Source: an uncultured Gammaproteobacteria bacterium
GTDB lineage: Bacteria > Patescibacteriota > Microgenomatia > Woykebacterales > RBG-16-39-9b
Assembly (NCBI GenBank): GCA_964360785.1
Contig: CAYHXX010000001.1
Span: 9,334-73,333, forward strand
DNA length: 64,000 nt
Direction: 5' to 3'
The notes beneath the pieces were generated by a model. It had not been told where the DNA came from. It saw only the letters and a program-made list of their open reading frames with translations, and made no database searches. The position numbers and the translations under genes were made by a program. Within the stretch, counting starts at the first letter, position 1, and every line of letters starts with the position of its first letter. Shown in pieces: positions 23,537 to 62,596 of this stretch.

Positions 23537-23592
23537 GACAAAAACCTGCAGGTTGTCCTAGTGCTCACCACAATCGAATAGCTCATCTTTTT

Positions 23593-26177: not shown

Positions 26178-26750
26178 TTACTTGGTTGGATTTGGTTGAG
26201 GGTTGCTACGACCAATTTCGTAAAAATAAGTTGGTCCCCAGGGTGTGTTTAGTTCTGGATTTTCGTCAACAAATATTGGTGTCCAGTTTGTAAAAGGAAA
26301 AGAAGGAGCGATTACTAGAGTTCCAGGTTTTAGTTCAGTAAGTAACTTCTCCTCCAGCAATTCATTTGTTTGTTCTGTCAGGTAAATCAGGCAAACTGTC
26401 GCCTCGGAAAGGTCAACATCAAACAAATTTTTATTGAGAAAAGTTACTTTGTCGGAAAGGCGCAGAATAAAGCTTTGGTACAGACTGTAGAAATAGCGGA
26501 GTTTGTCGATCTCGATCCCAACTGCTTTGCAATGGTAGGTTAGTGCGGTAGCGATTGGTATTCGCCCATCCCCGCTTCCCAAATCGTAGAGAATATCCCC
26601 TTCTTTTAGTTTCGCCAAACGCAAAATACGCTCTACCACCGGATGTTCCATCGCAACATACGGGGCGCCATGATCGGAAGCATTGTATTTCCAATATTGG
26701 TAGACGAAAAATCCAATGACGATAGCTATGAGGGCAGTGATTGCGTACAC
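26178..26750 (-). CDS. membrane-anchored class I SAM-dependent methyltransferase
   Basis: N-terminal TM; motif I ILYDLGSGDGRIPI. Confidence 0.7.
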   Translation of the reverse strand: MYAITALIAIVIGFFVYQYWKYNASDHGAPYVAMEHPVVERILRLAKLKEGDILYDLGSGDGRIPIATALTYHCKAVGIEIDKLRYFYSLYQSFILRLSDKVTFLNKNLFDVDLSEATVCLIYLTEQTNELLEEKLLTELKPGTLVIAPSFPFTNWTPIFVDENPELNTPWGPTYFYEIGRSNPQPNPTK

Positions 26751-26761
26751 AACTATTAATA

Positions 26762-26935
26762 TACTACTTCTTTTGTTTCGGCAAAAGAAGTATCAAGAAA
26801 ATCCGACCCTTGCACTTCGTCAGCGGTTGAACATAAGCAAAAAAGCTCGGAAACTTCTGGAATTCCTTAACAGTCAGTTCCAGCTTTCTCTTCGCTTTTT
26901 TACAAGTTCAAAAAGGCTGACTTTGCTAGAGGGCT
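26762..26935. repeat. copy 1 of a hairpin-rich ~175-bp repeat element
   Basis: Shares TACTTCTTTTG..CAAAAGAAGTA hairpin, identical 27-nt core AAAAAGCTCGGAAACTTCTGGAATTCC, GTCAGTTCCAGCTTTCTCTTCGCTTTTT and AGTTCAAAAA..ACTTTGCTA with the reverse complement of 38861..39036. Confidence 0.7.
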
Positions 26936-27364: not shown

Positions 27365-27820
27365 TCAGTCAGCGGCTGGTGGGGTTTGCTTTGCGGCCTC
27401 GAACTCATGAAGAGCTTGTGCCAAATCATCTATATCTGTGAACAGCTTGCCTTCTTCTATTCTTGCGATTCGAAACGGTGTTGTCACGTTGATTGAGGGG
27501 AAGACAAAACCGTAAACAGGTATCTTGTGTATCTCAGCTAGTATCTGCTCGTTGGTACGGCCGTCTGAAGCAGTTGAGAGGTCGGCAACCACGACATCAA
27601 AGTCGTGTGTTGCGAAGAAATCTTCTACTTCAGCCAGAATTCTTCTTGCTCCCGCATGATCCGTTTTCCAGTCCCTTTCCTCGTAGACTCCTCGGTCCAA
27701 CGCGCTGGTGACATTGAAACCCCGGTTTCTCAACGCATTTACTGCGTATTCGATTCTCTCATTTTGTCCAGGTCTGCCGATGCGGCCGATGACGTAGATC
27801 CGTAGCATGGTCGCCTCCAA
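27365..27820 (-). CDS. hypothetical GC-rich protein, possibly nucleoside 2-deoxyribosyltransferase-like (DUF4406-like) Rossmann fold
   Basis: MLRIYVIGRIGRPGQNERIEYAVNALRNRGFNV pattern; about 57% GC. Confidence 0.3.
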   Translation of the reverse strand: MEATMLRIYVIGRIGRPGQNERIEYAVNALRNRGFNVTSALDRGVYEERDWKTDHAGARRILAEVEDFFATHDFDVVVADLSTASDGRTNEQILAEIHKIPVYGFVFPSINVTTPFRIARIEEGKLFTDIDDLAQALHEFEAAKQTPPAAD

Positions 27821-27987
27821 TCATGCTCGGGATTATAGCAGTAAAGTGTAGAATTGTGAACACAGCTGAGTAATTCCTATAGCTCTTTAATATCCGACTT
27901 ATAACTATTGACAAGAAGTTTGGAAGTGGTTTAGACTAATTGGTAAGGAGGACCTCTGACACTGCCTAGTCACGTTATTTTTAAACC

Positions 27988-28479
27988 ATGAAAATCTCAA
28001 ACCGAGAAATTATTATTGCAGCCATAGCCATCCTAGTACTACTTGGTATAGGATACTTTATAAACAACAATTCCAAGGACAACAAAAAAGAAGAGACCAA
28101 GCAAGAAGACAAGGTAAACTTGGATGACTCTGGTAGTACTGACGAAAACAAGGACGACCAGAGCAAAGACGAAGAGGAAAAAGAAGCCCAAGGTGTCATT
28201 TCGACTGATCCAAAATCCGGTGCTGAGGTTACCCTCGCTTCTGCTCCAAAAGATGTTGTGATCAAGTTTGATAAAGAAATCGCTGGCGGATCAGAAATAA
28301 CGGTAGTTTCAGACAAGAATGTCGATGTCGTGACTGCTGGGAACAAAATCACCGCTGACTTGAAGCAACTCTCTGCGCCAGTGAGTATTTCTGTTGCTGG
28401 TACCTACACAGTAGCCTACAAGATCAACTGGAAAGACGGAACTAAGAGTGACGGAAGCTACAAGTTCACAGTCAAGTAA
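27988..28479 (+). CDS. membrane-anchored secreted protein with D/E/K-rich linker and beta-sandwich-like C-domain
   Basis: N-terminal TM, acidic low-complexity linker, ~90-aa C-terminal domain. Confidence 0.5.
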   Translation: MKISNREIIIAAIAILVLLGIGYFINNNSKDNKKEETKQEDKVNLDDSGSTDENKDDQSKDEEEKEAQGVISTDPKSGAEVTLASAPKDVVIKFDKEIAGGSEITVVSDKNVDVVTAGNKITADLKQLSAPVSISVAGTYTVAYKINWKDGTKSDGSYKFTVK

Positions 28480-28507
28480 GTAAGCTGACTAAATTTGGGC
28501 ATATAAA

Positions 28508-28534
28508 AAGCTCCTTCTGATGAGGGAGCTTTTT
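28508..28534. terminator. bidirectional intrinsic terminator between convergent genes
   Basis: AAGCTCC-10nt-GGAGCTT flanked by an A-run (left) and TTTT (right). Confidence 0.5.
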
Positions 28535-28637
28535 GGTTCTACAGATAAGTTCTTTCGGATATATTTTCGGGAGTTTATTTGGGTCGTGTGGGGCGGCAGC
28601 GTTGCTGGTTTAGCTTTGCTGCCTGCCCCTGAGACCT

Positions 28638-29390
28638 CTACTCCTTCTGAAATTCGCTCGGTGTCCAGAAGACGGTGTCTGTCGGCAGATCAATGTACTC
28701 GGCCATACTCGCAGAAGTGAATCCTGAGTAGTAGTGGCCGTCTGGGGCCATGGTCGATTCGGTAGCTATTGTGACTTTCATGCCGCCGTAGCCGAGTTGC
28801 GCACCTCCGTATTTGCCGATGAACCAGGGATCTCCGGCAGGGCTGCGACGCAAGACGAAATTGTAGGCCAGCTTGGCTTTATCACCTGGCTGGAAGTCGG
28901 GCTTGTAGCGCTCGCCGACTTCTGAGATTCGGAACAGGAGAAACTGCTTGTCGTCGAGCCCGAAATCATAACCCTCGGTATAGACCGACCCTTGTACAAC
29001 ATGGATTGGCAGGACCCAGTAGCCTTTGGTCTGATCGTTATGGCCGTGCAGGGTTGGTTCGCCAATAAGCTGAACGATGTCATGGTCCTGGACGCGATGA
29101 CCCTCGAAAGTGCAGTGCTTGAGAACGGGCATGTCCTTGTAGCAGTCAATCTGACCGGTGCCGAAAACCTCGTAATAGGCGCCGACGACGTACTTTTGCG
29201 TCAGTGCCGGTGTCGTTGCATCAGGCGCTGCTGTTGGTTCTGCACTTAATGCAGTTGTGCCATTGTCCTTGCCTAGGTTCTTCGTATCGTCATGGACGCC
29301 GATGGCAAAGGCAGCGATAAGGACGATTGCCACTACCGCCGCAATGATTCCGAAGACAGCTTCCCCTGGGGTTACCCGTCTTAGTCTCAT
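28638..29390 (-). CDS. GC-rich membrane-anchored secreted hypothetical protein
   Basis: MRLRRVTPGEAVFGIIAAVVAIVLIAAFAIG TM anchor, A/P/T linker, ~200-aa domain; about 58% GC; the antisense ORFs look spurious. Confidence 0.5.
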   Translation of the reverse strand: MRLRRVTPGEAVFGIIAAVVAIVLIAAFAIGVHDDTKNLGKDNGTTALSAEPTAAPDATTPALTQKYVVGAYYEVFGTGQIDCYKDMPVLKHCTFEGHRVQDHDIVQLIGEPTLHGHNDQTKGYWVLPIHVVQGSVYTEGYDFGLDDKQFLLFRISEVGERYKPDFQPGDKAKLAYNFVLRRSPAGDPWFIGKYGGAQLGYGGMKVTIATESTMAPDGHYYSGFTSASMAEYIDLPTDTVFWTPSEFQKE

Positions 29391-29552
29391 AATCCCCTCC
29401 TTGGGCTAGAGTTGATCCTTCCCGATTTCTTGGTTGAATTATAACTTATGGAGTAAAGTTGGAGTAATTAAATTTTAGTAATTTCAATTTTGAGTGTAGG
29501 TAAAAAAGAAGGTTCTCTGAGGCAGCCGAGCTGTTTGCTCAGGATGGCAACC

Positions 29553-30467
29553 TCAGAGTTTAATCTTGCCGTGCGAAGGTGAGCGCCGGCGTTGTCTATA
29601 GGGTTTCCCGTTCTCCTCTTCAACATTGATTGGTGGGCCACTAACTAAATCATGTACATAACCGCAGCAGATGCAGGTCGCGTAGACGCCGTACCAATCT
29701 CTTTCGTGAATCATCGAACCACGACAGCGAGGGCATGTTCGGGGTAGGTTCGTCTTCGGCGGAACTACACCGTTAGAATTCGGTGTGGCGACAGGCTTCA
29801 CCTTTACCGGTGTTGGTTGAATCGGTGCGGGTTTTGGTTCTTCCCAGGCTGGTTTCGGCGCTCGAACTGTTGGACTCGAAGGTACTTGTTCTCGAGCAGT
29901 GGCTTGTTGGAGCATAAGCTCGATCGCTTGCCTTCGGTCCTCTCTACGACGGAACCGTTCCGCTTCTCGTTCCTGTTTCGCTTGCTTTTCGTCCTTCTCT
30001 TGTCGGATTTTCTCCCCGACGCCGAAATCGTCGACCCTGTTTGTGGAAGCAGGTTTTCGCGGAGTTGCACCAAGACGTGGCTTTCCCCTTGGGATCGAAA
30101 ACTCGGCGGCCCACTTTTCGGAAAGAATCAGCGGATCCTCCGTTAGTAGGTTCTGCCAGAGTTGCCAGTTCGGTGCGGTTCGTCGGCCGGGCGAATGTCT
30201 TCTTGTTCGAAAATGGTGTATCGAGATCTTGGGCCCGAGAGCATAGATCTTTCGACTGGACTTTTCACGCACAGCTACAAGCCAGCGCTGACCTTCCTCA
30301 GCAACAGAATCTTCGAAGTAGATTTGGGCGGTTTGGGTAAACGGTCGCCCATACCCAATCATCTCGTAGATAACTGTCAACTCCAATGGGTTGTAACCCC
30401 AGGGATTCGTATCAGCGCACAGGTACAACCCCGGACGTAGGTTCCGAACCAGATTACTGAGACTCAC
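29553..30467 (-). CDS. GC-rich hypothetical protein with C-terminal C4 zinc ribbon
   Basis: CPRCRGSMIHERDWYGVYATCICCGYVHD; R/E/K-rich charged middle; P-rich linker. Confidence 0.5.
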   Translation of the reverse strand: MSLSNLVRNLRPGLYLCADTNPWGYNPLELTVIYEMIGYGRPFTQTAQIYFEDSVAEEGQRWLVAVREKSSRKIYALGPKISIHHFRTRRHSPGRRTAPNWQLWQNLLTEDPLILSEKWAAEFSIPRGKPRLGATPRKPASTNRVDDFGVGEKIRQEKDEKQAKQEREAERFRRREDRRQAIELMLQQATAREQVPSSPTVRAPKPAWEEPKPAPIQPTPVKVKPVATPNSNGVVPPKTNLPRTCPRCRGSMIHERDWYGVYATCICCGYVHDLVSGPPINVEEENGKPYRQRRRSPSHGKIKL

Positions 30468-30574
30468 TGGTCACCTCCTTTCCTCGGGTGCTCTCTCGAA
30501 GTGGAAAAACCTAGGCTGATATTAACAATAATATACTAGGAAAACAATTGTTGAGTTGCGAACGATTATATTTT

Positions 30575-31249
30575 TTATTTTCTGATTCTGATCAGAGAGG
30601 GATTGTCGACTCCTCCACCGGCGCCGGCATACATGCCAAAAAGAAAATCACTGATCTTATACTTGTGTTTGCCTCCCCGCTCGTCCCAAAGCGGATCATT
30701 GACGTAAACGAATTTACGGTCGATTCCGGTGACAACATTAAAATGAAAGTTGAAGCGTGGGTTTTTGGCAAAAAGAAAACTGGAGGTAAGAACTACGATC
30801 GATGGGTTTTTACTCTTTAACTCTTCGCGGATGTCCTCTTCAGTTGGAATTTTTACTTCGACTACTCCCCCATCTTTCATGAACTGCAAAAAGAATTTCA
30901 CCGCTCTTTTGTCGTTCGAAGTTTTGATACCGTATCCAGCAATTGCTTTGCTTTTTGTATTAGAAATTTTTTCTAAGTGGTTTTTTATTTTGTCTTGAGA
31001 AGCACCGATTTCGTTAAGCGTAAAGAGCCCAGGGTTAAAAGTGGTAACTGTTACTTTGAACCCATTTTTGATTAAGAACGAACCCAGTTGAGGACAGTAA
31101 GTTCCAAATTTATCAGCCTCTAAATTTTTCTGGATTTGTTCAAAGGTAAACGGCAGTTTCCAAAACTTTGTAATCATGTTGACCGCAGCAATTCCGCAAT
31201 CAACAGAATCTTTTTCTTGACGAACAATTGGAACGTTTAATGGTTTCAT
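30575..31249 (-). CDS. peptidase C39-like (papain-fold) domain protein
   Basis: VRQEKDSVDCGIAAVNMITKFW catalytic Cys context; start set at MKPLN (31249). The track ORF extends to 31546 through GC-rich foreign sequence and is probably spurious. Confidence 0.6.
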   Translation of the reverse strand: MKPLNVPIVRQEKDSVDCGIAAVNMITKFWKLPFTFEQIQKNLEADKFGTYCPQLGSFLIKNGFKVTVTTFNPGLFTLNEIGASQDKIKNHLEKISNTKSKAIAGYGIKTSNDKRAVKFFLQFMKDGGVVEVKIPTEEDIREELKSKNPSIVVLTSSFLFAKNPRFNFHFNVVTGIDRKFVYVNDPLWDERGGKHKYKISDFLFGMYAGAGGGVDNPSLIRIRK

Positions 31250-31419
31250 TTTGAGGGAATTGTACAGGTAGGTTTGAAAGTTGTCAAAAAGTTTGGGAAA
31301 ATTAATAAGTAAATTAAATGTCAGAGGACTCCCGCCGGGTTCGAAAACCTGGTGGCGGGAGTCCCTGTAGCCCACGTAGTGGTCGCAGAGCGCGGAGCGA
31401 TCTATCTCCGTTCCATGTG

Positions 31420-31962
31420 CTAGTGGAATCGGCTGATGTCGATCACCTGGATGCGTGGATCGCTGCTGCTCTCCTCGTTGTCGTAGTCCACCGGTTGGAA
31501 GTGGAGGTGACGTTCCGGGTTGAAGCTCGGGTGCTTCTCCACCCACTCCCTGTAGGCCTCTTCGTCGTCCTTGGTGATCTCGCCGATGAAGGCCATCTCG
31601 ACCTCGTGCTGGGCTTGCACTCGGAGAGCTCGCAGGCAGTGGAGTGCGAGCAGCTGCATCACTTGGATGGGCTGCTCAGTGAACGCGCCGTCCTTGTATT
31701 TGCGCGCGACCTGGCGGTAGAGATTGAGGACCAACGCTTTGAGCTCGTCGAGGTCTTTCGCGACGACGAACTGATCCACCTCGGGATCGCTGGCTGTTCT
31801 CCGCATCTCCCGGGCGAACGCGTCCTTGTAGTTGGAGTGCGCATAGGCAGCTTCCATCTCTCCGAGCACGATCCCGGGAAAGAAGCTCCAGACGGTGTAG
31901 TGCAGGTCGTACGGGTTTTCCCGTAGCCTTGCCAGGGTGTAGTTTTCCACGGCGGTGACCAT
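31420..31962 (-). CDS. GC-rich hypothetical protein
   Basis: 180 aa of balanced composition; the antisense ORF 31318..31926 is R/V/L-rich and typical of a shadow ORF. Confidence 0.45.
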   Translation of the reverse strand: MVTAVENYTLARLRENPYDLHYTVWSFFPGIVLGEMEAAYAHSNYKDAFAREMRRTASDPEVDQFVVAKDLDELKALVLNLYRQVARKYKDGAFTEQPIQVMQLLALHCLRALRVQAQHEVEMAFIGEITKDDEEAYREWVEKHPSFNPERHLHFQPVDYDNEESSSDPRIQVIDISRFH

Positions 31963-32016
31963 TCCTTTCGTTCCCTCCCTTGCTTCTGAATGATTGATGG
32001 GAATATTTTACCACAC

Positions 32017-32931
32017 TCAGTCTACTATAGGATTTCTTGAAGGTAAAACTCTAACTAACGACCAAGCGGTTTGGGTTGAAGATGGTTTGGTGAAGATTTT
32101 GTAGGACTTAAAGTCCGTTTTTGAGCTGCCAAACAAAAATTGACCAGGATCAGAAATAACCTCAATGTCGCCTACTCCAATGTTTCTTCCACCTTCATAC
32201 CATAAGAAAAAAGGTCCAAAAAAAGTCTTTTCTTGGTTTAAAGAATAGGAAACTGCCCTTGCTTGCTTTGTTGTTGCCAAAGATATGGCCATGCAGTTTT
32301 TTCCAACTCCATAACTATTGGGTTTAGATGCGACTATTCTTATCGCCTTAACCAAGGCTTTTTCTATCTCATCAACAGTATTTGCCTTACGAAGTGATGC
32401 TTGTAAAATCCTTCTGTCGTTTCGATCAAAAGGTTGCGTTGGTGGAATTATGATAACTTGTGGTCGAGATGAATCAAGCGACTCAACTTTAAATTCTTTT
32501 TCGACAGAACCATTAGTTGAGACATTAGAAATAGTTCGAACATATGGTTTAAGGATTGTATCATTTTTCTGTTCCCATCCGGCAATTACGAAAACGTGTC
32601 GTTTTTCTAAATGATCTGGAAAAGTTCGAAACAATTCCGTAGCCTTTTTTGCTAACACTTCAACCGCTATCTGTACCTCAAGTTCGCATAAACCTTCTTC
32701 TTGTATTGTCTCTGTTAACCAATGATCAATCCGCTTATCATTTACCCTACCTATCCCTGCAAAAGTTATTGTTAACAATGCATTCTCACAAGAAAAGACT
32801 AAAGCTTTGTTTGCCTGATCGTTGACGGTAATGCCAGTCGCCATATCAGTAAACATTCGATCTGACACTTGTACTATTAAATTCTTTGTCACCGCAGTTA
32901 AATTTAGTGTCATGCTTGAGAATATTAGCAC
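32017..32931 (-). CDS. hypothetical protein
   Basis: 304 aa, low GC, no motif recognised. Confidence 0.5.
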   Translation of the reverse strand: MLIFSSMTLNLTAVTKNLIVQVSDRMFTDMATGITVNDQANKALVFSCENALLTITFAGIGRVNDKRIDHWLTETIQEEGLCELEVQIAVEVLAKKATELFRTFPDHLEKRHVFVIAGWEQKNDTILKPYVRTISNVSTNGSVEKEFKVESLDSSRPQVIIIPPTQPFDRNDRRILQASLRKANTVDEIEKALVKAIRIVASKPNSYGVGKNCMAISLATTKQARAVSYSLNQEKTFFGPFFLWYEGGRNIGVGDIEVISDPGQFLFGSSKTDFKSYKIFTKPSSTQTAWSLVRVLPSRNPIVD

Positions 32932-32951
32932 TTGGAAAAGGAGCGGGCAAA

Positions 32952-33290
32952 TTATTTTTTCTTGGGGATTTTCTTTTCTACAAATCTGACAAAGTGATAA
33001 GACTTCTCTACGATTGGCCAGGTATTTTCAATCTCCTCAACAGAGGTGATTTCAGCTGTAACCCAAGTCTTTCCAAACTCAAACTTTTCGAAAAAACCAG
33101 TTTCCCTAGCTTCTTCAAAATCCTCTGCCGAAAGACGAAGTAAAAGTTGGAAGAGATTATCGTCGATTTTTTTATACCCACCAAAAAACTTCCTCTCCGG
33201 AGTGTGCGCGATCGTCCAGCCAAATTCTTTGCGCCAGGTTATAGGACCGAGATTTTCGATTTTTTGGATCAAGATTTCTTCAAGTGACAT
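32952..33290 (-). CDS. hypothetical protein
   Basis: 112 aa, low GC. Confidence 0.45.
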   Translation of the reverse strand: MSLEEILIQKIENLGPITWRKEFGWTIAHTPERKFFGGYKKIDDNLFQLLLRLSAEDFEEARETGFFEKFEFGKTWVTAEITSVEEIENTWPIVEKSYHFVRFVEKKIPKKK

Positions 33291-33403
33291 GTGAGTAACT
33301 TAACACTTTGAAAAGAAGTGGGCAAATAAGATAAAAGAAACTCCCGTCGAGGTTTGCTCGGACGGGAGTCGGTGGTTCTTACATATGTTGCTGCGTTGAG
33401 TCT

Positions 33404-33751
33404 TCAGGAAACGATCTCCTCGTGGCTCGATTCGGTCGGCTTCGTCTCGCCGATAACCGGTGGTGCGTCCTTGCTGATTGTCACCGGAGTCGTAAGGCCC
33501 TCGTACTCGAAGACCAGTTCGACCTTGTGGTTCTCGGCAAGGCGGATGTCCACAAGACTTGACCATTCGAGGCGGTACAGCACGACGCTGCCGAGGGTGG
33601 TTCCCTTGTACCTCAGGATGTTGCCGTTGGCCTGATGCAGGCTGTAGCGAACGCCTTTCCGTACCCACGTCACGACGCCGTGAATGATTTTCGCCTGAAA
33701 ATGGGCGGCGACTTGATCGGTCCACTTCTCTTCGAGCAGAACTGTTGCCAT
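33404..33751 (-). CDS. GC-rich hypothetical protein, paralog A of 36410..36760
   Basis: KW..QVAAHFQAK / LAENHKVELVFEYEGLTTPVTISKDAPPVIGE aligns with KW..EVAGHLQAE / IAGHKVALVFKRDGHKRMVTISKDSSPVIVGE. Confidence 0.5.
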   Translation of the reverse strand: MATVLLEEKWTDQVAAHFQAKIIHGVVTWVRKGVRYSLHQANGNILRYKGTTLGSVVLYRLEWSSLVDIRLAENHKVELVFEYEGLTTPVTISKDAPPVIGETKPTESSHEEIVS

Positions 33752-33770
33752 GACGCCCTCCTTCGCTGTG

Positions 33771-34223
33771 CTAGTTGCTGAAGAACTCGCCGAGCATCGT
33801 ACCGCCGGGTACGATCTTGGCGAACAAGTCAGTCGTACTCTCGTCCCGGTGCTGGCTGTGGCAGATTGGGTGGATTGCCGGTGGTTGGTTGAACAGCCTA
33901 CCGATGGCTACCTCAGCCCGTTTGATCTCTGCCAGACCAGCGCGATTGGCCGGATTGTTGTTGTCCCTCGATAGGACCGTGACGATGTGCAGAACCCTTC
34001 CAGTCGGAAGGTGGCCGAAGATGACCCCTGCCTGGACTTCCCGCTTGCGCAGTTCGTCCATGAATGCACCCGCGGCCCGTGTGAGAGTGTCGGCCCGGTC
34101 CTCGCCGACCCCGACTTCAACCAGCTTCTGCTGTAGCCAACTGATTCCGTGAAAGACCAAGATGACCTCCTGCTTCCTGCAGATCCCTGCTGTGGGGTGC
34201 TTTCTTTGCAGCGATTTTAGCAA
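33771..34223 (-). CDS. GC-rich hypothetical protein, operonic with paralog A
   Basis: 150 aa; 20-nt gap to the downstream gene; the antisense ORF is spurious. Confidence 0.45.
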   Translation of the reverse strand: MLKSLQRKHPTAGICRKQEVILVFHGISWLQQKLVEVGVGEDRADTLTRAAGAFMDELRKREVQAGVIFGHLPTGRVLHIVTVLSRDNNNPANRAGLAEIKRAEVAIGRLFNQPPAIHPICHSQHRDESTTDLFAKIVPGGTMLGEFFSN

Positions 34224-34623
34224 TATTGTTGGATTTAGGCAAATAGAGCTACATTTTTTTGAAATTGAGAAAAAAAGAATTGCCGCCGATCAACAGGGAG
34301 AGTGACCGGCGGTTCGAAGACACTGATTCGAGATAGCCGTGCGCCCAGTACGTTAGGCGATCTTGCCGTTCTCGAAGAACAGGTGCGCAGTCAGAACGAC
34401 GCCAAATGCGGTGAGGAGGACGAGAGCCTTCTCTACCGTACTGAGTCTTTGCGGTTGAAACCGTTCGGATGACTGATCCCTCATGGAAATTTCTCCTGCT
34501 AACTCCCTGCAGGGATAATTATATTTATTTTTCGTTTGGAAATAAATGGACAATTAAAGCGGATTAAAAAGTGGGTTGTGATCTCTCTCCGGAGAACACT
34601 ACCCGAAAGCTGAGTTTCGCTAG

Positions 34624-35073
34624 CTACATTGGATACTCCTCAGCTTCCTCTTCCCGTCGTTTATCAAGAGCAAAGAGTTCAAATGAACGCCGAACATTCT
34701 TCGCAATCTGTTTCGGATCCTTACTGCTCTCGCATTTGAAGCCATGCCACCTGCGATACTTTTCGCGTGCCTCTGGAGTAATGATTCCGGTGGTCGCCAC
34801 CAAAGTTATCACAAAATGGGGCTCTTTCCTTTCGATGTGACCAATCGCCCACTCGATATCAGTTTGTGTAATCTGTTCATTAATACAGACCCAGACCATC
34901 CCATCTTTGTTTACAACAATGATCTGTGGCCCACGTGCTAAACCAGATTGAATCTGTATATTCAGATCTGTGGTCTGTAGTTCTCTGGCAATACTTCGGA
35001 TACGAGCTGGTAAGCTCATATCAGCTGGGATGCCAGGGAGCATGAGGACAAGAGTGTCGAAGAACCGAGGCAT
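34624..35073 (-). CDS. hypothetical protein
   Basis: 149 aa; acidic C-terminus. Confidence 0.4.
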   Translation of the reverse strand: MPRFFDTLVLMLPGIPADMSLPARIRSIARELQTTDLNIQIQSGLARGPQIIVVNKDGMVWVCINEQITQTDIEWAIGHIERKEPHFVITLVATTGIITPEAREKYRRWHGFKCESSKDPKQIAKNVRRSFELFALDKRREEEAEEYPM

Positions 35074-35192
35074 CAGACTCCTCCTTCTGAAAGTAGCGAT
35101 CTCTGGTTCGCGAGGTGAGATTATATCAAATTGGGAAAAAGAAAGACTCCCTTTGGTTTACGCCGTGGGGAGTCTGAGATCTCTAGTTTGTT

Positions 35193-35561
35193 TCATTTGC
35201 TGATTACTCTAAACCGTTTGGACCTTTCCCGATGTTGCCATCTGAGTCTGTGCCACTCGTATTTTGACCAAAGACACGACAGCAGTGTCACCGTCAGAAT
35301 GAACACTGGTAGAACTATGGTCGGGATGACGAAATTGGCTGTCCATTGAAAATGCGTTGTTGGGAACAACAGTAGAACTGTTCCGACATAAGCTGGTCCA
35401 ATAATGAATAGTGCAATTCCACTGATCAATATGTCGCCCGTCTTCCAGAAAGCAACCGATTGTCTGATCTTTCGAATTCTCCCACTCTGTCCTGTTCGGT
35501 TGCGGCGATTACTCTTGAGCAGACGAAGCGTTGGTTTGGGTTGCTGATTCCCATAACCCAT
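35193..35561 (-). CDS. small membrane protein
   Basis: 122 aa, two TM helices, basic N-terminus. Confidence 0.35.
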   Translation of the reverse strand: MGYGNQQPKPTLRLLKSNRRNRTGQSGRIRKIRQSVAFWKTGDILISGIALFIIGPAYVGTVLLLFPTTHFQWTANFVIPTIVLPVFILTVTLLSCLWSKYEWHRLRWQHRERSKRFRVISK

Positions 35562-35678
35562 GAATCACCCTCCTCTTTTTTGTCTTTGGTTTTTATATGT
35601 TAGCACTGGGGAAAGAAGTGGGCAAATTTATAAATAAGAAAAAGAAAGACCCCCTTGGTTACCCGTAGGAGTCTGTGG

Positions 35679-36254
35679 TCAGTTGATAATCGTGCCTTGA
35701 GCGTTGATTGGCACTTGGACCGATCTTACTTGAGATTTTCTACTTTTTCTTGTTCGCGATCTTCTCCTGTTGTTTTCAAACATTTTTTTCGGAAAGACTC
35801 CAGCAGAGATACTCAGGAATACTCTATCCAGGCTGGGGTATTTCGTTGTCGATCTTTCCATCAGTTTCCAGAAGCCCTTGATATGTTCGTTTAGCATTTT
35901 GCCAAGTATTGTCTTTTGTACATGCAGCGGTAGATTTGACAGGACAATAATGGCAACCGCTACTGCGTGGGCATAAGCTATTTGGTGCGGAACTGAGTTG
36001 TTTCCTGGCATCGCGCTGTAGAACATGTGATAGCAGTGTTCCACATGGTCCTTCAAATCTTCGACAGGTAACGCTAACAGTTTCGGATCGCCCGCTATTT
36101 CCTTTCTGGTTTCTTGAAGGCAGCCAGCAATTTCTGGTGTATCAAGTGTTTCTTGTTTCCAATTGACCCGAGGGAACTTTCGGCGCACCATAGCCAGGAC
36201 GGGTGTTGGGTCAGACAAGAGACTGACGAGAGTGTACAGCTTGGGTGGTGGCAT
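35679..36254 (-). CDS. hypothetical protein with basic C-terminal tail
   Basis: 191 aa; C-terminal RRRSRTRKSRKSQVR. Confidence 0.4.
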   Translation of the reverse strand: MPPPKLYTLVSLLSDPTPVLAMVRRKFPRVNWKQETLDTPEIAGCLQETRKEIAGDPKLLALPVEDLKDHVEHCYHMFYSAMPGNNSVPHQIAYAHAVAVAIIVLSNLPLHVQKTILGKMLNEHIKGFWKLMERSTTKYPSLDRVFLSISAGVFPKKMFENNRRRSRTRKSRKSQVRSVQVPINAQGTIIN

Positions 36255-36409
36255 CCTATTCCTCCGTGAACTCGTCCTTTCGTGATGAGGATTTTATCAC
36301 ATCTTATAATTCATAGTAAATTGGAGAAGGATTTTAGAAATGAAAGAAGGGAAGGTCCGGTGTGGATCTTCCCTTTGGGGTGCAGAGCTGGGTGTTGGTT
36401 TCACGAGCT

Positions 36410-36760
36410 TTAGGAGACAGTACCCTCTCTGCTGGTCGGTGTTGCTGGTGGTTCTCCAACGATGACCGGCGAGCTGTCCTTGCTGATCGTCACCATTCGC
36501 TTGTGGCCATCACGTTTGAAGACCAGGGCAACCTTGTGACCGGCGATCCAGAGGATTTCCGTCAGGCCTTCCCAGTTGAGGTCACTGAGGCTGGATCCGG
36601 ACGTGGTGACCTCGGTTAGGGAGACACTGTCGCCGGTTCGGTCCAGCGCGGTGTGAACTCCCTGGTGATCCCAGCGGATCCTGCCGTTGGAGGTTTCCGC
36701 CTGCAAATGGCCGGCGACCTCCATCCACTTACTTGCGCGTTCTTCAGGCGTCATTTGCAC
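36410..36760 (-). CDS. GC-rich hypothetical protein, paralog B of 33404..33751
   Basis: See paralog A alignment. Confidence 0.5.
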   Translation of the reverse strand: MQMTPEERASKWMEVAGHLQAETSNGRIRWDHQGVHTALDRTGDSVSLTEVTTSGSSLSDLNWEGLTEILWIAGHKVALVFKRDGHKRMVTISKDSSPVIVGEPPATPTSREGTVS

Positions 36761-36890: not shown

Positions 36891-37433
36891 TTAGTCCCAA
36901 AAGATCGGGTCAGAGATAAACGGGCCAAAAGCAAAAATTATTCCGTGTGAATAAGCTAGATCGCGAGGCAGGTGCTTGTTGCTGATTAGACCCATCACAC
37001 CTTCCTCCTGATAAATATTTGGGTTACCCGAAAGCCCAATCACAACGTCTCTTAGTTCTTTTCCAGCCAAAAGTTGCTTGGAGATTTTGTCTGATACCTG
37101 CCAGTGTGCTGAAGTACCCAGTCCCAGATTACCTTTCCTATCGACTACGGCAATCCAGCCACTTTCGAACCAGCGCTCCCCCACTTTGTGCATGCCACCT
37201 TCCATACCGATTGCATAATCTGCTTTGGTTTTTTTCAGCGCGTTTTGGGCGCGGTTTATTGCTCCTTTCAGGCTTATTTCAGCAGACTTGGGTTGATTAT
37301 CTACACCGGAATCAACTTCAACTCCTGTTACTTTAGTTCCAGGGAAAAGTTTATCAATGGCTAGTTGGGCGGCACGAATCTTGGCCTCATTTGTACTGCC
37401 GACAACGATTTTCATCCTATCTTCTTGATCCAC
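36891..37433 (-). CDS. non-canonical purine NTP pyrophosphatase-like (YjjX / inosine-xanthosine triphosphatase family)
   Basis: MKIVVGSTNEAKIRAAQ..., WFESGWIAVVD; true start probably the internal MKIVV. Confidence 0.65.
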   Translation of the reverse strand: MDQEDRMKIVVGSTNEAKIRAAQLAIDKLFPGTKVTGVEVDSGVDNQPKSAEISLKGAINRAQNALKKTKADYAIGMEGGMHKVGERWFESGWIAVVDRKGNLGLGTSAHWQVSDKISKQLLAGKELRDVVIGLSGNPNIYQEEGVMGLISNKHLPRDLAYSHGIIFAFGPFISDPIFWD

Positions 37434-38187
37434 TGATCAAAAATATTTTTAATTTCAGCTAAATGTTCTGGTGCTTGGAAAGTGTGGGGTGCACCCTTGA
37501 TTACATGAAGTTCTTTTTTGTCACCTGGAATTGTTTCAAAAAGCACCTGTGACTCATAGAGATGTTCGTCTTTTTCGCCAACAATCAAAAGTACTGGCAT
37601 GGTTAATTTTTCTGCTTGCGGAAGCAAGTCATATTTCATCCGATCTTCAATATGAGACCATTTCAATTTCTTGATTAAACCAGGAATGGACCCACTTTTT
37701 TGTTCTCGCCAACCAGTTTTCTCCCATTGTTCAGCTACCCTTTTGTGGCGCGGGGTTTCAACACTTAACTTTCCGGAAACAACTGTTGAAATTGGGGCTA
37801 AGGCTTTTACCAGTTCAGGATGACGTTCGGCGTACAAAGCAGTTGAAATTCCTCCAAGACTGTGACCGGACAGGCAAAAAGGTTCTTGATACCAGCTTTG
37901 GGTTTTCGCCAGCTAATGACATCTTCGAGATCTTCGTAATAATTTGTTGTGGTGGCATCCGCGTAATCTCCCTCGCTTTCACCATAAGTATTGGTAGTAT
38001 CAAATCTGATAACTGTGTAGCCGGCGTCAGAGAAAGCTTTGGCAAAGGTTTCGATGTGAGGTTGCTCTTTGAAACCGCCTAGTCCGTGGGCTACGAAAGC
38101 AAGGCCTTTTTGGTTCTCGGCCTTCTCAAGAATTAAAACAATCTTTTGCTTTTTGCGGTTTTGGATCGTGATTTTTTCCATAATCAA
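37412..38187 (-). pseudogene. alpha/beta-hydrolase gene disrupted by a 1-nt frameshift
   Basis: N-half (ORF 37807..38187: VAHGLGGFKEQPH...EDLEDVISW) and C-half (37412..~37900: AKTQSWYQEPFCLSGHSLGGISTALYAERHPE... with GHSLGG nucleophile elbow) lie in frames offset by -1 at ~37895-37905 (att agc tgg | gcg aaa). Confidence 0.6.
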
Positions 38188-38636: not shown

Positions 38637-38860
38637 ATTACGTAGACGTTAGTAAAAGGGTTTTCATGGAAATATTTTACCACCTTTGGCAGCAAAGGTG
38701 GCACCAAACTGCCGCAAAACTGCGCGTGCTAGAAAGATTTAAGTCACTCAAGCAAAATTGCAAACTCATCCGCCGGTTGGCGGACTCAAACAAGCAATTT
38801 GTGCTAATTCGCTTGGTCAAATCTTTCCTATACGCATGCTCGTAAAGCGGGGCTGAAATG

Positions 38861-39036
38861 CCTTAGCAAAGTTGGTGTTTTTGAACTAGCTAAAAAGCGA
38901 AGAGAAAGCTGGAACTGACCCGCCAGCTGGCGGGGAATTCCAGAAGTTTCCGAGCTTTTTCGCGTAGCTTCAAAAGCCAACACAGCGGAGGCTCTGCTTT
39001 TCTTGTTACTTCTTTTCGCAGAAGCAAAAGAAGTGG
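38861..39036. repeat. copy 2 (inverted) of the hairpin-rich ~175-bp repeat; contains an extra perfect palindrome CCCGCCAGCTGGCGGG
   Basis: Reverse complement matches 26762..26935 block-for-block; the 27-nt core is identical. Confidence 0.7.
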
Positions 39037-39037
39037 A

Positions 39038-39394
39038 TTAAAACAGTTTTCCTCCAATTTTTGCATCGTGGTCAGCCTTGCCTGCCGGCAGGCAGGGTCG
39101 TACTAATACTACTCTCCCCTGCTCATCCGGTACGCCCAGTGTCAGGCACTCAGATACAAATGGTCCGATTTGTTTGGGTGGGAAATTCACTACTCCAAGC
39201 ACAAGTGTGCCTGTGAGCTCATCCTTATTATATAGTTCAACTATCTGGGCACTACTCTTTTTAATCCCGATTTCACTTCCGAAATAAATTTCTAGTTTGT
39301 AAGCTGGTTTACGAGCCTCTGGAAAATCCTCGACCTTAACTATCTTTCCAACCCGAATTTCGACCTTAGAGAAATCTTCGTAGTTAATTTTCAT
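39038..39394 (-). CDS. tRNA-binding domain protein (CsaA/Trbp111/EMAP-like)
   Basis: MKINYEDFSKVEIRVGKIVKVEDFPEARKPAYKLEI... Confidence 0.8.
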   Translation of the reverse strand: MKINYEDFSKVEIRVGKIVKVEDFPEARKPAYKLEIYFGSEIGIKKSSAQIVELYNKDELTGTLVLGVVNFPPKQIGPFVSECLTLGVPDEQGRVVLVRPCLPAGKADHDAKIGGKLF

Positions 39395-39924: not shown

Positions 39925-41169
39925 ATGTCAGCAACTGGGTTAGTCCTGTCGACCGACCAATCGGACAGCAAAATAGTTGATATATATACAAAAGGTGAGC
40001 ACAAGTCGCACCTTGTGTCGGCATGGTTGCCGATCCGTCGAATCAATGCCTTGAGGCAGATGCGCACGACATTTGACCCGGAAGAGTTGCGGAGTCTGGC
40101 AGATAGCATCACTGTCCAGCATCTGCTCCACCCACTGGTGGTGGCGCAATTTACCTCTGAACAGGCACTTGAGCACCTGCGGGTTATAAACAGAGCTTGG
40201 GGAACACACTACACAATCAACGACCTCAAGGCTACCGAGACTGAGGAGGGTTTGTTCTACTTCATTCTGGCAGCTGGGGAAAGAAGGTTGCGGGCAGTCC
40301 TATGGCTTTGGGAAAAAGGTTGCGAAGCTCATCGTGAAGAATATTCTCCGCAACCGGTTCCAGAAGGTTTCTGTTACATCAGTCACTTTGGAGACGACAG
40401 GATTCCGGTAAGAATCCGCACGGACGCAACTCCAGATATCGTACTAACAGTACAACTGGTAGAAAACACAGCGGTCCTGCCGCTACCACACGAAACTGCA
40501 ATGGCCTTTTCGGAGTACCACCCGATTTGGCAAGTATTCAACCCGAAAACAACTCTGAAAGATTTTGCCAAACAGGTGAATCGTTCATCAAGTACAGTCA
40601 GCGATTACCTGCGTTATGCCAAGCTTCCGGAATCGATCCACGAAGAAGTAAAGCAAGGGCTCATCCCATTCGGGATTGCGGTAGAGATCTCTCGTTTGCA
40701 CGAAGACGGTATGGGTGAGGAAGAGCTGGGATATTGGGTGTTGAAGGCCAAGGCCGGCAACTTCCCGATCCCGGACTTTCGTGAGATGGTCTCAAACACA
40801 CTCAAGGAAAGACACTCCGGACAAACAAGCATGTGGGATATGATGACGGCAAACGCTGTCGCCGCTGCCAACATGCAAGATATCCGACTGATACTGGAAC
40901 GGCAGCAAAGCCGTGGGTGGCACGTTGCGATTGGGGTAAGAAAGCGAGTGATAGCGCTGGTGAGAGATGGAAAACTGGGATTTAGAGACTCGCCCTTCTC
41001 CTCGAGAAGCGTAGTCAGACAGATGCGAATCGATCTCGAACTAGCTCGAGAAGAGAATGAACTTCTCAAACACTTGCTCGGTGCAGAAGGTTACCAGCAA
41101 GCTACTGAGATACTGGCAGAGCGGGATAGCCTGACTTTGCAATTATTTGAGAGAGCGGAAAGAGAATGA
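39925..41169 (+). CDS. ParB/Srx-like nuclease-domain protein
   Basis: GGAGGGAGG RBS; LPIRRINALRQ..ELRSLADSITVQHLLHPLVV...FILAAGERRLRAV (ParB N-domain box II-like); GC-rich. Confidence 0.65.
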   Translation: MSATGLVLSTDQSDSKIVDIYTKGEHKSHLVSAWLPIRRINALRQMRTTFDPEELRSLADSITVQHLLHPLVVAQFTSEQALEHLRVINRAWGTHYTINDLKATETEEGLFYFILAAGERRLRAVLWLWEKGCEAHREEYSPQPVPEGFCYISHFGDDRIPVRIRTDATPDIVLTVQLVENTAVLPLPHETAMAFSEYHPIWQVFNPKTTLKDFAKQVNRSSSTVSDYLRYAKLPESIHEEVKQGLIPFGIAVEISRLHEDGMGEEELGYWVLKAKAGNFPIPDFREMVSNTLKERHSGQTSMWDMMTANAVAAANMQDIRLILERQQSRGWHVAIGVRKRVIALVRDGKLGFRDSPFSSRSVVRQMRIDLELAREENELLKHLLGAEGYQQATEILAERDSLTLQLFERAERE

Positions 41170-61849: not shown

Positions 61850-62596
61850 CTAAGCAGTTAGGGTGAGCTCGTTGTTCATTGCCCACAGAATCAAAAGGGC
61901 TTTTGGACCTTCTTCGTCTGCGGGAGTTCGAGCGTCCGCCAGGGCGTCTCTCCACAGACCGATGTTCCAAGGTGGGTCGCTGCCGATGACCTTGGACGCG
62001 AGGTACGGGATTGCAGAAACCACCCTATACTTGACCAGTGTCTGGTACTGACGCAGGTCGACGAGAAGAGCGTTGATGTCCTGCTTCAATGAGACGCGGA
62101 CCGGGTCGTTCAAGTGCCAGTTGAAGTCGTAGATCCCTGTTGACCAGGCTGCCAGCCGTTCACAAAACTCAGCAACGTACTGGTCGTAAGGCTTCACGAC
62201 GTAGTTGGCTCCGATCCTAATGGTGGATAGAACACCCAGCCAGGTGTTGAACGCCAGAGCATGGCTGAAGTAGGCGCTGCTGTCGGCATGGAAGGCCCTG
62301 AGTAGGCACTTGCACGCCTCGTGGGCTAAGACCGGTCTTCCCCCGTCCTCCTTTCTGTAAAATTGCGCTACTCGGGTGATGATCCCAAGCAACTGGATTG
62401 CCCGCTCGCACTGGACAGGATCCTCGATTGGCTGCTTCCGGGGGTAGTCCACTTTGGCGGGGTCTGGGCGTAGATCTTGCTCCCCGTTGTAGAGCAGGCC
62501 ACAGATTTCCGGCACGTTGTCGGCCGCAGACAACTTTGTAATCAGGTCGCTAAGCGTCAGATGGGGTTTGACATTGGTGAGCATGGTGTCCTCCAA
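61850..62596 (-). CDS. GC-rich hypothetical protein
   Basis: 248 aa, about 58% GC in low-GC flanks; stem-loop terminator downstream. Confidence 0.45.
   Translation of the reverse strand: MEDTMLTNVKPHLTLSDLITKLSAADNVPEICGLLYNGEQDLRPDPAKVDYPRKQPIEDPVQCERAIQLLGIITRVAQFYRKEDGGRPVLAHEACKCLLRAFHADSSAYFSHALAFNTWLGVLSTIRIGANYVVKPYDQYVAEFCERLAAWSTGIYDFNWHLNDPVRVSLKQDINALLVDLRQYQTLVKYRVVSAIPYLASKVIGSDPPWNIGLWRDALADARTPADEEGPKALLILWAMNNELTLTA

Follow-up and report, generated by a model that had tools for sequence, protein, structure and literature searches.

The question raised by this locus is whether its GC-rich genes are recent imports into a low-GC genome. The first-pass annotation had proposed an actinobacterial partner of an epibiotic CPR host, or the phages of that partner, as a plausible donor. 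A CPR host is confirmed, and the window, that is, the whole 64-kb stretch of DNA analysed here, belongs to the chromosome of a groundwater (Hainich) member of the Patescibacteria; among genomes with long-range context, the closest (L007) has a protein identity of only 47-58% to it, so that finding a gene present or absent at this site says little. The annotation is partly supported, but the GC-rich genes appear to be either orphans or long-standing, lineage-specific genes that are GC-rich in related genomes too, and not recent actinobacterial imports.

The overall GC content of the window was found to be 43.4%, and among its 67 open reading frames (ORFs) of at least 100 aa the median GC was.429 (robust sd 0.038) and the median GC3.399 (robust sd 0.059). 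A maximal-segment scan, with a model of 58% versus 42% GC, returned seven segments of 53-61% GC compared to 43% for the window, all with log-likelihoods of 17-48, while the top value in 200 random 64-kb control sequences was 16.8. Six genes were strong joint outliers in GC, GC3 and codon score, with GC3 of 0.63-0.83 compared to the median of 0.40 (Table 1). The excess was mostly at third codon positions, where C3 exceeded G3, and three-base periodicity was strong in the larger genes (for example, GC1/2/3 of.64/.33/.83 in 31420..31962). The rise in GC ended at gene ends, neighbours in the same array being at background GC, and five independent assemblies agreed across the island boundaries (two ENA assemblies and three Logan runs, 99.97-100% identity). 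These findings show that the GC islands in this lower-GC genome are real and sharply bounded. The first-pass annotation is supported in that the GC-rich genes are compositionally unlike the core and are part of the accessory, fast-turning genome. Antisense shadow ORFs rich in R, V and L were also present, such as 31318..31926(+) with 202 aa (V.15, L.14).

The original list of GC-rich genes held for the six strong outliers, whereas 27365..27820 (GC.50), 29553..30467 (GC.53) and 39925..41169 (segment score 11.6) were raised only moderately (z ~2). The supposed single gene 35193..36760 was found to be three ORFs (35193..35561, 35679..36254 and 36410..36754), the first two at background GC (.46), and 33404..34223 to be two genes in different frames. 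The ORFs named in the islands at 23190-23625 and 52026-52489 are doubtful because codon periodicity is inconsistent there. No clear periodicity was seen in the first of these, at whose site L097 has a different GC-rich stretch and other relatives have none; in the second, neither a consistent reading frame nor an Rfam match nor excess folding energy was found. The statement that none of the genes could be assigned to a family was too strong, since 39925..41169 is ParB-like, a small SH3b-like family includes 28638..29390, and relatives of the Zn-ribbon domain are numerous; no family match was found for 27365..27808, 33771..34160 or the array genes.

Table 1. Coordinates and composition of features in the window (GC and GC3 as fractions).
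Feature	Coordinates	Strand	GC	GC3	Details
GC-rich segment	23190-23625		.56		maximal-segment scan; between DUF5656 gene and conserved element 23829-23887
GC-rich segment	28581-30498				maximal-segment scan
GC-rich segment	31326-31979				maximal-segment scan; takes in terminator hairpin of 31420..31962
GC-rich segment	33343-34200				maximal-segment scan
GC-rich segment	36349-36750				maximal-segment scan
GC-rich segment	52026-52489		.61 (peak.71)		maximal-segment scan
GC-rich segment	61807-62627				maximal-segment scan
Hairpin element, left copy	26757..26935	+			~180 nt; upstream of methyltransferase-like gene 26178..26750
Hairpin element, right copy	38857..39043	-			inverted; directly past tRNA_bind gene stop codon
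Mildly GC-rich gene	27365..27808	-	.50		147 aa
SH3b-like protein gene (outlier)	28638..29390	-	.546	.625	250 aa
Zn-ribbon protein gene	29553..30467	-	.531	.51	304 aa
C39-family peptidase gene	30575..31249	-	.39		background GC; Peptidase_C39_2, E = 3.7e-10
Outlier gene, most extreme	31420..31962	-	.599	.829	z = 7.3; 180 aa, predicted helical
Array of short single-gene units	31963..36409	-			GC-rich and background-GC genes mixed
Members of array	32017..32913, 32952..33290, 34353..34484, 34624..35073, 35193..35561, 35679..36254	-			
Outlier gene, orphan	33404..33751	-	.575	.741	115 aa; paralogue of 36410..36754
Outlier gene	33771..34223	-	.585	.728	
GC-rich gene	33771..34160	-	.59	.73	129 aa; TTG start, AGGAGG ribosome-binding site
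Outlier gene	36410..36760	-	.593	.701	
GC-rich orphan	36410..36754	-	.59	.70	114 aa; paralogue of 33404..33751
ParB-like gene	39925..41169	+	.50	.53	414 aa
Outlier gene, outside main region	61850..62596	-	.565	.707	248 aa

The genes with detectable relatives (SH3b-like, Zn-ribbon and ParB-like, together with the low-GC C39 peptidase) occur together in a common neighbourhood in other Patescibacteria. These related genomes have similarly low GC and a conserved gene order, which speaks against recent import. The product of 28638..29390 is predicted to have an N-terminal membrane anchor, which a linker rich in Pro and Thr joins to two SH3b-like beta-barrels; these contain conserved cysteines. It belongs to a small family of Patescibacteria, for which 25 representatives were found among 1.84 billion. 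Pfam SH3 families gave no sequence match; the AF2 model of the family (pLDDT 89) matched in structure comparison the teichoic-acid-binding domain of SlpA (8alu, 7qfg) and the SH3b domains of NlpC/P60 proteins (6bim, 3npf) with E = 5e-4 and low TM-scores of.22 and.40. As in those modules, the extracytoplasmic part would consist of two SH3-like barrels, whereas the conserved cysteines and the membrane anchor are peculiar to this family. Members adjoin a 120-aa gene and ClpB in L087, L093 and L094. In L093 and L095, as in the window, the Zn-ribbon gene is a neighbour; in L087 a member occurs with the C39 and ParB-like genes, L089 and L092 have one close to DUF5656-RuvC-YebC and L090 has one close to CutA1, and all contexts examined were CPR-like.

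The GC3 of SH3b-like family members was.52-.64 compared to.35-.46 in their neighbours, an excess of.12 to.25 in 10 of the 11 testable copies, the exception being P0022 in L097, the closest relative sampled, which is at background GC3 (.32). Four-fold sites between orthologues matched at.22-.35 compared to.28 expected by chance, so that synonymous sites are saturated. Since the excess is kept despite this saturation, the opposite of amelioration, it appears from these comparisons to be maintained and not to be the fading scar of a transfer.

In the Zn-ribbon protein, a long charged linker connects a conserved domain at the N-terminus to a 4-Cys zinc ribbon at the C-terminus, and its orthologues in Patescibacteria are 32-38% identical. 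The last 67 residues share 64-75% identity with a small protein found in high-GC Chloroflexota, compared to 55% with the CPR orthologues. This domain appears to be the sole link outside CPR, it leads to Chloroflexota and not to Actinobacteria, and it is not recent, since the Chloroflexota genes match at a nucleotide identity of only 0.60-0.67. The Chloroflexota relatives all follow a c-di-AMP (ydaO) riboswitch aptamer (RF00379, 89-99 bits), whereas the CPR gene lacks a riboswitch and its product is longer by the 237 residues of the N-terminal domain and linker. The ParB-like orthologue in L087 is 32% identical and GC-rich as well. GC stays apart within the neighbourhood both in the window and in L087, being high for the ParB-like gene (.50,.52) and low for the C39 gene (.39,.38), a conserved member whose L087 orthologue is 53% identical. 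As had been suspected, the C39 ORF was artificially extended: 30575..31546 runs 99 codons upstream of the true start, the ATG at 31249, over the terminator hairpin of 31420..31962 and the promoter. That ATG lies ~10 nt past a near-consensus promoter (TTGACA, 17 nt, TACAAT at 31287-31259).

Searched against 5.8 billion proteins, 31420..31962, 33404..33751 and 36410..36754 proved to be strict orphans. The search with 31420..31962 recovered only the protein itself, and the profile built on the other two, which are 41% identical to each other (E = 2e-17), recovered that pair alone. For 61850..62596, neither the family search nor PDB gave a match, and IMG/VR contained no close relative. The strict orphans may be the youngest or fastest-evolving of the GC-rich class, and 33771 and 61850 probably belong with them.

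The GC-rich genes are predicted to be separate transcription units, each having a promoter region rich in AT, GGAGG as its ribosome-binding site and a terminator hairpin. Within the array each unit has its own ribosome-binding site and terminator, and several share a module (GACTCCC...GGGAGTC, TTTCTTTT, then ATTTGCCCACTTC...AGTGYTAA; repeat families D2, D4 and D7) common to GC-rich and ordinary genes. The repeated module comprises a terminator and a promoter, and therefore each array gene would have its own promoter. Judged by these signals of their own and by the intergenic modules shared with ordinary genes, the GC-rich genes appear to be fully naturalised.

With about even confidence, we favour a hypervariable accessory region that either draws on a GC-richer pool of Patescibacteria genes or owes its high GC to a bias acting on particular genes. 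Apart from the two short segments 23190-23625 and 52026-52489, the GC-rich stretches are real protein-coding accessory genes, located in a rearrangement-prone variable region between a YebC-RuvC-DUF5656 block and a ClpB/CutA1/tRNA_bind block. At least three of them, those for the membrane-anchored SH3b-like protein, the adjacent Zn-ribbon protein and the ParB-like protein, are old residents of the lineage, since their orthologues stand in the same neighbourhood and are GC-rich there too. The GC excess would then set apart a class of genes, surface or accessory in role and evolving fast, that had no recent foreign donor. These would be exchanged within the GC-richer pool by allele replacement and gene-by-gene insertion, or else be held GC-rich by the bias; L095, with 50% GC over 3 kb, offers only a hint of a GC-rich Patescibacteria donor.

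Classical recent transfer, in which each gene came from a non-CPR organism or element of ~55-65% GC (Actinobacteria, Chloroflexota, or their phages and plasmids) and the GC3 series.83,.7,.6,.5 represents stages of amelioration, is rather unlikely. GC3 of.70-.83 with C3 above G3 is typical of 58-65% GC genomes and the boundaries are sharp and gene-scale, but those genes for which relatives were found keep both synteny and high GC in several Patescibacteria, even though synonymous sites are saturated. The GC-rich glycine-cleavage genes of L089 show that such genomes can hold GC-rich genes, and the Zn-ribbon domain is nearer to Chloroflexota than to CPR, although at the low nucleotide identity given above. 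An unsampled donor would fit the orphan status, and the orphans by themselves would look no different had they been imported recently from some high-GC organism or element outside the sampled range; yet no donor homologue of them was found even in a collection that includes the source metagenomes of this genome. Searches with the GC-rich genes gave no match among GenBank phages or plasmids and nothing close in IMG/VR, and no integrase, transposase or tRNA site was found at the region. An actinobacterial or phage donor is thus not supported by the sequences, nothing in which points there. Under the amelioration model of Lawrence and Ochman 1997, atypical GC3 is said to mark acquired genes and to decay toward host composition. 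The graded GC3 seen here could be read in that model as different ages, but the orthologues are still.12-.25 above their neighbours after saturating synonymous divergence.

We also consider unlikely an equilibrium reached in place, in which vertically inherited genes have had their synonymous sites driven toward GC, either by GC-biased gene conversion at a recombination hot spot in surface genes under diversifying selection, or by selection for G/C-ending codons, rare in the genome, that control translation or mRNA stability. It would account for third positions carrying most of the excess, and for a GC3 that is steady at.57-.64 while genome backgrounds span.35 to.46; the background GC of one SH3b-like member does not fit it. 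The best-characterised member is a predicted extracytoplasmic binding protein, and recombination appears active, as judged from rearrangement of the region among relatives, paralogues and duplicated intergenic modules. According to Lassalle et al. 2015, bacterial GC-biased gene conversion reportedly raises GC3 in frequently recombining genes with no need for a foreign origin, its effects being small (a few percent) and regional. In contrast, the shift here is ~.2-.4 in GC3 and limited to single genes, with array neighbours at background, a pattern that a regional process would not predict. For the codon-selection variant, we know of no mechanism that makes a subset of genes prefer codons avoided by highly expressed genes. 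Far less probable than either is an artefact of chimeric joins or of non-coding GC-rich DNA with ORFs arising from stop-codon scarcity. The two segments that lack periodicity have ORFs in several frames, and the single-sequence AF2 model of the orphan 31420..31962 is poor and uninformative (pLDDT 43), but for the seven larger genes this reading is largely refuted by the agreement of assemblies, by periodicity, ribosome-binding sites and terminators, and by paralogues and orthologues detectable at the protein level.

Genomic islands are common in 125 groundwater Patescibacteria genomes (PMC12455944, mSystems 2025), from the same habitat and phylum, and as here their accessory genes lie in regions of atypical composition. 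In that study 83% of inferred transfers stay within Patescibacteria, with 1 event from Actinomycetota, and transfers are mostly not recent (PMC12455944). Unlike those islands, the present region has no mobility gene, tRNA site or direct-repeat borders, and syntenic GC-rich genes that keep their atypical composition across genomes, as seen here, are not described there. The array resembles integron cassette arrays and phage morons in its short same-direction genes, mixed composition and repeated junctions, but an integron integrase, attC-like sites and phage hallmark genes are absent, and the repeat is a terminator plus promoter. The two copies of the hairpin element (inverted repeats I1 and I2) bound a 12-kb variable segment, and a third copy occurs in L097 upstream of the gene orthologous to the methyltransferase-like gene.

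The region was found to be compositionally heterogeneous. The GC content of the window was 43.4%, and the 67 ORFs of at least 100 aa had a median GC of.429 and a median GC3 of.399. Six genes (marked as outliers in the table) departed jointly in GC (z = 3.1-4.4), GC3 (.63-.83; z = 3.8-7.3) and codon-usage score (z = -3.1 to -5.1), so that the atypical composition and codon usage by which genomic islands are recognised were found in these six. This was also the outcome of the codon-usage comparison with the other genes that the first-pass annotation had called for, with deviations of up to z = 7.3 in GC3. A maximal-segment scan gave seven segments with scores of 17-48, whereas none of 200 random sequences scored above 16.8; the segment of the ParB-like gene (39994-41011) scored 11.6 and was marginal. 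The claim that the GC-rich islands are distinct from the core was therefore borne out by the outliers and the scan together, and the antisense "shadow" ORFs described for them were present. Several gene models had to be changed. The ORF 35193..36760, taken as one gene, consisted of three separate genes, the GC-rich one being 36410..36754 only, and 33404..34223 consisted of two. The GC of 27365..27820 and 29553..30467 was indeed raised, but moderately and not markedly as had been stated, and the small ORFs at 23.2-23.6 kb and 52.0-52.5 kb were doubtful, their segments having no consistent codon phase. An alternative genetic code was not needed to explain the broken "genes", since each piece is a gene by itself, equipped with a ribosome-binding site and a terminator.

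The island boundaries lay approximately 30-95 nt from the coding ends, and the overhang beyond the stop codon corresponded to a GC-rich terminator hairpin. The larger GC-rich genes showed strong three-base periodicity (GC3 > GC1 > GC2), and each of them was preceded by GGAGG and an AT-rich region containing -10-like boxes, and ended in a terminator made of a hairpin and a T-run. Short single-gene units followed one another in one direction from 31.9 to 36.4 kb, GC-rich ones mixed with ordinary ones, and a terminator-plus-promoter module was common to several junctions in this row (repeat families D2, D4 and D7). Since GC-rich and ordinary genes have these junction modules in common, both are wired into the same native regulatory scaffolding. 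These findings show that most of the GC-rich islands are genes, and that they are naturalised. Two of them, 33404..33751 and 36410..36754, were paralogues (41% identity, E = 2e-17); 32952..33290, considered as a low-GC paralogue of this pair, showed no similarity to it.

The suspected artificial extension of the C39 peptidase ORF was confirmed. The true start is the ATG at 31249, and the longer ORF extends back across the gene's own promoter and the terminator of its neighbour. This promoter was near-perfect (TTGACA-17 nt-TACAAT) and ended approximately 10 nt upstream of the ATG. The C39 gene had no ribosome-binding site while its neighbours carry GGAGG, a sequence arrangement that suggests a leaderless C39 mRNA, unlike those of the neighbours. 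At 37412-38187, an alpha/beta-hydrolase was apparently split into the overlapping ORFs 37807..38187 and 37412..37837, the second with a faint Hydrolase_4 match; a frameshift, pseudogene or assembly error is likely.

Coordinates of GC-rich segments, genes and elements in the window, and of corresponding features at related loci
Feature	Coordinates or locus	Strand	Remark
GC-rich segment	23190-23625		maximal-segment scan
GC-rich segment	28581-30498		maximal-segment scan
GC-rich segment	31326-31979		maximal-segment scan
GC-rich segment	33343-34200		maximal-segment scan
GC-rich segment	36349-36750		maximal-segment scan
GC-rich segment	52026-52489		maximal-segment scan
GC-rich segment	61807-62627		maximal-segment scan
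SH3b-like gene	28638..29390	-	outlier
Zn-ribbon gene	29553..30467	-	304 aa
C39 peptidase gene	30575..31249	-	
Orphan gene	31420..31962	-	outlier
Orphan paralogue	33404..33751	-	outlier
Gene	33771..34223		outlier
Orphan paralogue	36410..36760	-	outlier; gene 36410..36754
Gene	61850..62596		outlier
ParB-like gene	39925..41169	+	
C39 promoter	31259-31287	-	
Split alpha/beta-hydrolase	37412-38187	-	
Hairpin element, left copy	26757-26935	+	
Hairpin element, right copy	38857-39043	-	
Hairpin element, third copy	L097 22-193		upstream of orthologous methyltransferase-like gene
Conserved short element	23829-23887		gene-poor gap downstream of DUF5656
34-nt repeat pair	51940-52007		
SH3b-like family member	L087		ParB-like, C39, Zincin_1, family member, 120-aa gene, ClpB; DUF5656 further on
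SH3b-like family member	L093		CutA1, tRNA_bind, CAP, Zn-ribbon orthologue, family member, 120-aa gene, ClpB
SH3b-like family members	L094		two family members, 120-aa gene, ClpB
SH3b-like family member	L089, L092		few kb from integrase, DUF5656, RuvC, YebC
SH3b-like family member	L095		Zn-ribbon orthologue, then family member
GC-rich genes beside low-GC ones	L087 59-8742; L089 13903-15435; L093 1352-2906		
c-di-AMP (ydaO) riboswitch and 68-aa gene	about 4818-5201 in each of L103, L119, L120, L131, L135, L141		high-GC loci

The host was confirmed as a CPR lineage by its gene neighbourhood (DnaB, EF-P, YebC, RuvC, DUF5656, ClpB, CutA1 and a tRNA-binding protein) and by the nearest matches of ClpB, which were in genomes titled Patescibacteria, Parcubacteria or Microgenomates. 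When the ClpB domain was used as a probe for related genomes, 80 loci were obtained, and the gene order was common only to L007, a 915-kb chromosome labelled Gammaproteobacteria that also held the best ClpB match; the NTPase gene used as a probe gave no matches. At the L007 locus (OZ246414.1, 681633-702133; 43% GC), YebC-RuvC-DUF5656, ClpB, CAP and PNPOx were shared with the window (41-58% protein identity), and L007 appears to be a Patescibacteria genome under a wrong label. Proteins identical to those of the region were encoded on contigs of the 0.1-µm filter fraction of Hainich groundwater, well H52 (ENA ERZ1292618 and ERZ1292616), as well as in three assemblies of Logan runs; across the GC boundaries, these sequences were 99.97-100% identical to the window.

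Relatives of the GC-rich proteins were few. Among 5.8 billion protein clusters, the orphan 31420..31962 found only itself, and the profile of the paralogue pair found only the pair. With nine GC-rich proteins joined in one tblastn query, no match was obtained in 50,697 phage or 72,556 plasmid records, nor was the ParB-like protein alone matched by tblastn in the phage records. In Pfam, PHROGs, NCBIfam, PADLOC and PDB sequence searches, only the ParB-like protein received a name, and weakly: it fell below the curated cut-offs of ParB_N (22.4 vs 26.3), HTH_ParB (21.3 vs 22.6) and TIGR00180 (42.7 vs 58.45), with a PHROG ParB-like match at E = 3e-8 and PDB Spo0J at E = 6e-4. An exhaustive HMMER search with the SH3b-like protein identified a small family, with 25 representatives (24-43% identity) among 1.84 billion. 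The AF2 model built on this 25-sequence alignment (pLDDT 89.3) showed an anchor and a linker followed by an all-beta part, and the two SH3-like beta-barrels expected of the extracytoplasmic part of an SH3b protein were found in this predicted structure. In the PDB, it best matched the teichoic-acid-binding domain of SlpA from Lactobacillus and SH3b domains of NlpC/P60 enzymes (E = 5e-4 to 4e-2, probability.8-1.0, low TM-scores). The protein had no match in Pfam or NCBIfam, their curated SH3 families included; the model is consistent with a membrane-anchored, cell-wall-binding-like protein. With such a protein among them, the GC-rich genes would be candidates for a role in host-cell contact.

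The surroundings of eleven other members of the SH3b-like family, on nine contigs, were then compared at the DNA level. All contexts examined were CPR-like, and many repeated the neighbourhood seen in the window. The SH3b-like, Zn-ribbon, C39 and ParB-like genes stood in the same neighbourhood in relatives that are distant (42-79% protein identity); at that same distance, no counterpart of the orphans was found in the related genomes or anywhere else. The GC3 of the family members was.57-.64 compared to.35-.46 for their neighbours, an excess of.12-.25 in 10 of the 11 copies with usable neighbours, the exception being the divergent member in L097 (GC3.32). The C39 gene was low in GC both in L087 (.38) and in the window (.39), and the ParB-like gene was high in both (.52 and.50, respectively). 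At conserved residues, four-fold sites of the family members matched at.22-.35, where.28 is expected by chance, indicating that their synonymous sites are saturated. The recurrence of the GC excess, with C39 low and ParB high, thus shows a GC mosaic common to genomes that diverged long ago, and the lineage as a whole seems to have this mosaic. Other GC-rich genes stood beside low-GC ones in the relatives, such as an HbpS-like and a Flp-pilin-like gene, glycine-cleavage T and H (.55-.59), and TetR and CAP (.53-.54). In L087, mean GC3 was.55 for genes without a Pfam match vs.46 for those with one.

The relatives of GC-rich genes outside CPR were in Chloroflexota only. A metagenome scan with the Zn-ribbon alignment gave 50 loci. 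In 49 of them the match (52-76% identity) was confined to residues 216-304 or a smaller part, for the most part 238-304, and the contigs had 57-69% GC. These loci encode a highly conserved four-cysteine zinc-ribbon protein of approximately 68 aa, for which exact look-up gave two clusters (64 and 219 sequences) with Chloroflexi bacterium RBG_16_68_14, Chloroflexota and Dehalococcoidia as named members. The 68-aa protein is unnamed by Pfam and NCBIfam. A c-di-AMP (ydaO) riboswitch preceded its gene in all six long loci tested (89-99 bits), and the protein may belong to the c-di-AMP regulon as a member not yet described. The Zn-ribbon domain of the window, at the C-terminus of 29553..30467, was 64-75% identical to the Chloroflexota proteins vs 55% to its CPR orthologues; the nucleotide identity to the Chloroflexota genes was.60-.67, and the GC of the domain (.52) was no higher than that of the rest of the gene. 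The link is a lead toward Chloroflexota, not Actinobacteria. It may reflect shared ancestry or an exchange of the domain long ago, and is no evidence that transfer was recent.

Insertion of the 12-kb stretch as a mobile unit was not supported. Integrase, transposase, conjugation and phage genes were not found in or bordering the region by Pfam on all called genes at 21.4-41.3 kb and by Pfam, PHROGs and PADLOC scans, and no tRNA or tmRNA insertion site was found there, the only tRNA of the window being at 4444-4530. The segment is flanked by inverted copies of an approximately 180-nt hairpin element and not by direct repeats. A transposon-like island with terminal inverted repeats was rejected as the main reading, since the left copy is conserved in L097 and neither a transposase nor a target-site duplication was seen. 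The two copies were 77-88% identical long hairpins (folding z = -3.4 to -4.1), each with a short stem (CTTCTTTTG...CAAAAGAAG) and, after it, a long imperfect hairpin, with 7-8 covarying pairs among the three copies and no match to an Rfam family. The retention of a copy upstream of the orthologous methyltransferase-like gene in L097, together with the covariation, indicates a conserved structured element and not a transposon end, and a role as small RNA, regulatory leader or recombination site is conceivable. An integron cassette array was likewise rejected, because the region had no Phage_integrase match and no attC, the repeated junctions were terminator hairpins plus promoter boxes, and every gene had a promoter-like region. 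For a prophage or moron cluster, the only significant PHROGs match among ten proteins was that of the ParB-like one, and three GC-rich proteins had no close relative in IMG/VR. A defence island was rejected as well, PADLOC giving only a weak C39-to-Cmr5 match (E = 3e-4), taken as chance. Gene order differed among all relatives, with CAP adjoining PNPOx in L007 and the ParB-C39-SH3b block on the other side of ClpB in L087, and the stretch is best regarded as a variable region that is prone to rearrangement.

The first-pass annotation had regarded the GC-rich genes as likely acquired horizontally and had suggested, as a speculation, a high-GC (for example actinobacterial) partner or its phages as the source. 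Recent import of this kind was not supported, given the phage and plasmid records without a match, the CPR-like family contexts and the confinement of outside relatives to Chloroflexota. Closeness to a donor at the DNA level was not seen either, at the four-fold sites or in the identity to Chloroflexota genes. One old transfer is argued against because a single old import would have ameliorated, and recent import into each genome needs a donor pool, none of which was found in 15 billion proteins. For the orphans, classical import from an unsampled high-GC source is possible. These findings show that several GC-rich genes are old, CPR-specific residents that are GC-rich in relatives too, and that no actinobacterial, phage or plasmid source is detectable in the searches made. 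The GC-rich genes may form an accessory class whose members are either passed around in a GC-richer pool of Patescibacteria genes or kept at high GC by a gene-specific force; in a study of groundwater Patescibacteria, most transfers were within the phylum (PMC12455944). It is conceivable, though we think it unlikely, that the SH3b-like, Zn-ribbon and ParB-like genes, and probably the orphans, are a lineage-restricted class with its own compositional equilibrium, GC3 staying approximately.2 or more above the chromosome despite saturation. If so, a force on single genes would set codon composition within a streamlined genome; candidates would be very strong GC-biased gene conversion at hyper-recombining surface genes or rare-codon selection for expression control. 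An excess generated in place would offer a natural test of the strength of recombination or codon selection on single genes in tiny genomes. Atypical GC is routinely taken as a sign that genes came recently from elsewhere and, for CPR bacteria, as a hint of which host they have. This shortcut fails here: those atypical genes whose relatives could be traced are old, CPR-specific and syntenic, and have kept their composition. In this lineage, island callers based on composition, and inference of the host, would give misleading results.

The two short segments without codon phase were not convincing as structured RNAs: neither had an Rfam match even at E = 1, and folding z-scores were modest (-0.7 and +0.3 for the segment at 52.0-52.5 kb, and -2.2 to -2.5 on both strands for that at 23.2-23.6 kb). 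A pair of adjacent copies of a 34-nt unit (GTCAAACGCTAAGGCGTTTCGCAAGTAGGAAMTA), 97% identical and each with a small palindrome, directly adjoined the former. Near the latter, an element of approximately 60-120 nt without an Rfam match was found at 72-84% DNA identity in every relative (L007, L087, L089, L092 and L097), and is a candidate for a control region or a non-coding RNA. Unrelated GC-rich inserts of approximately 400-500 nt separate this element from DUF5656 in the window and in L097.
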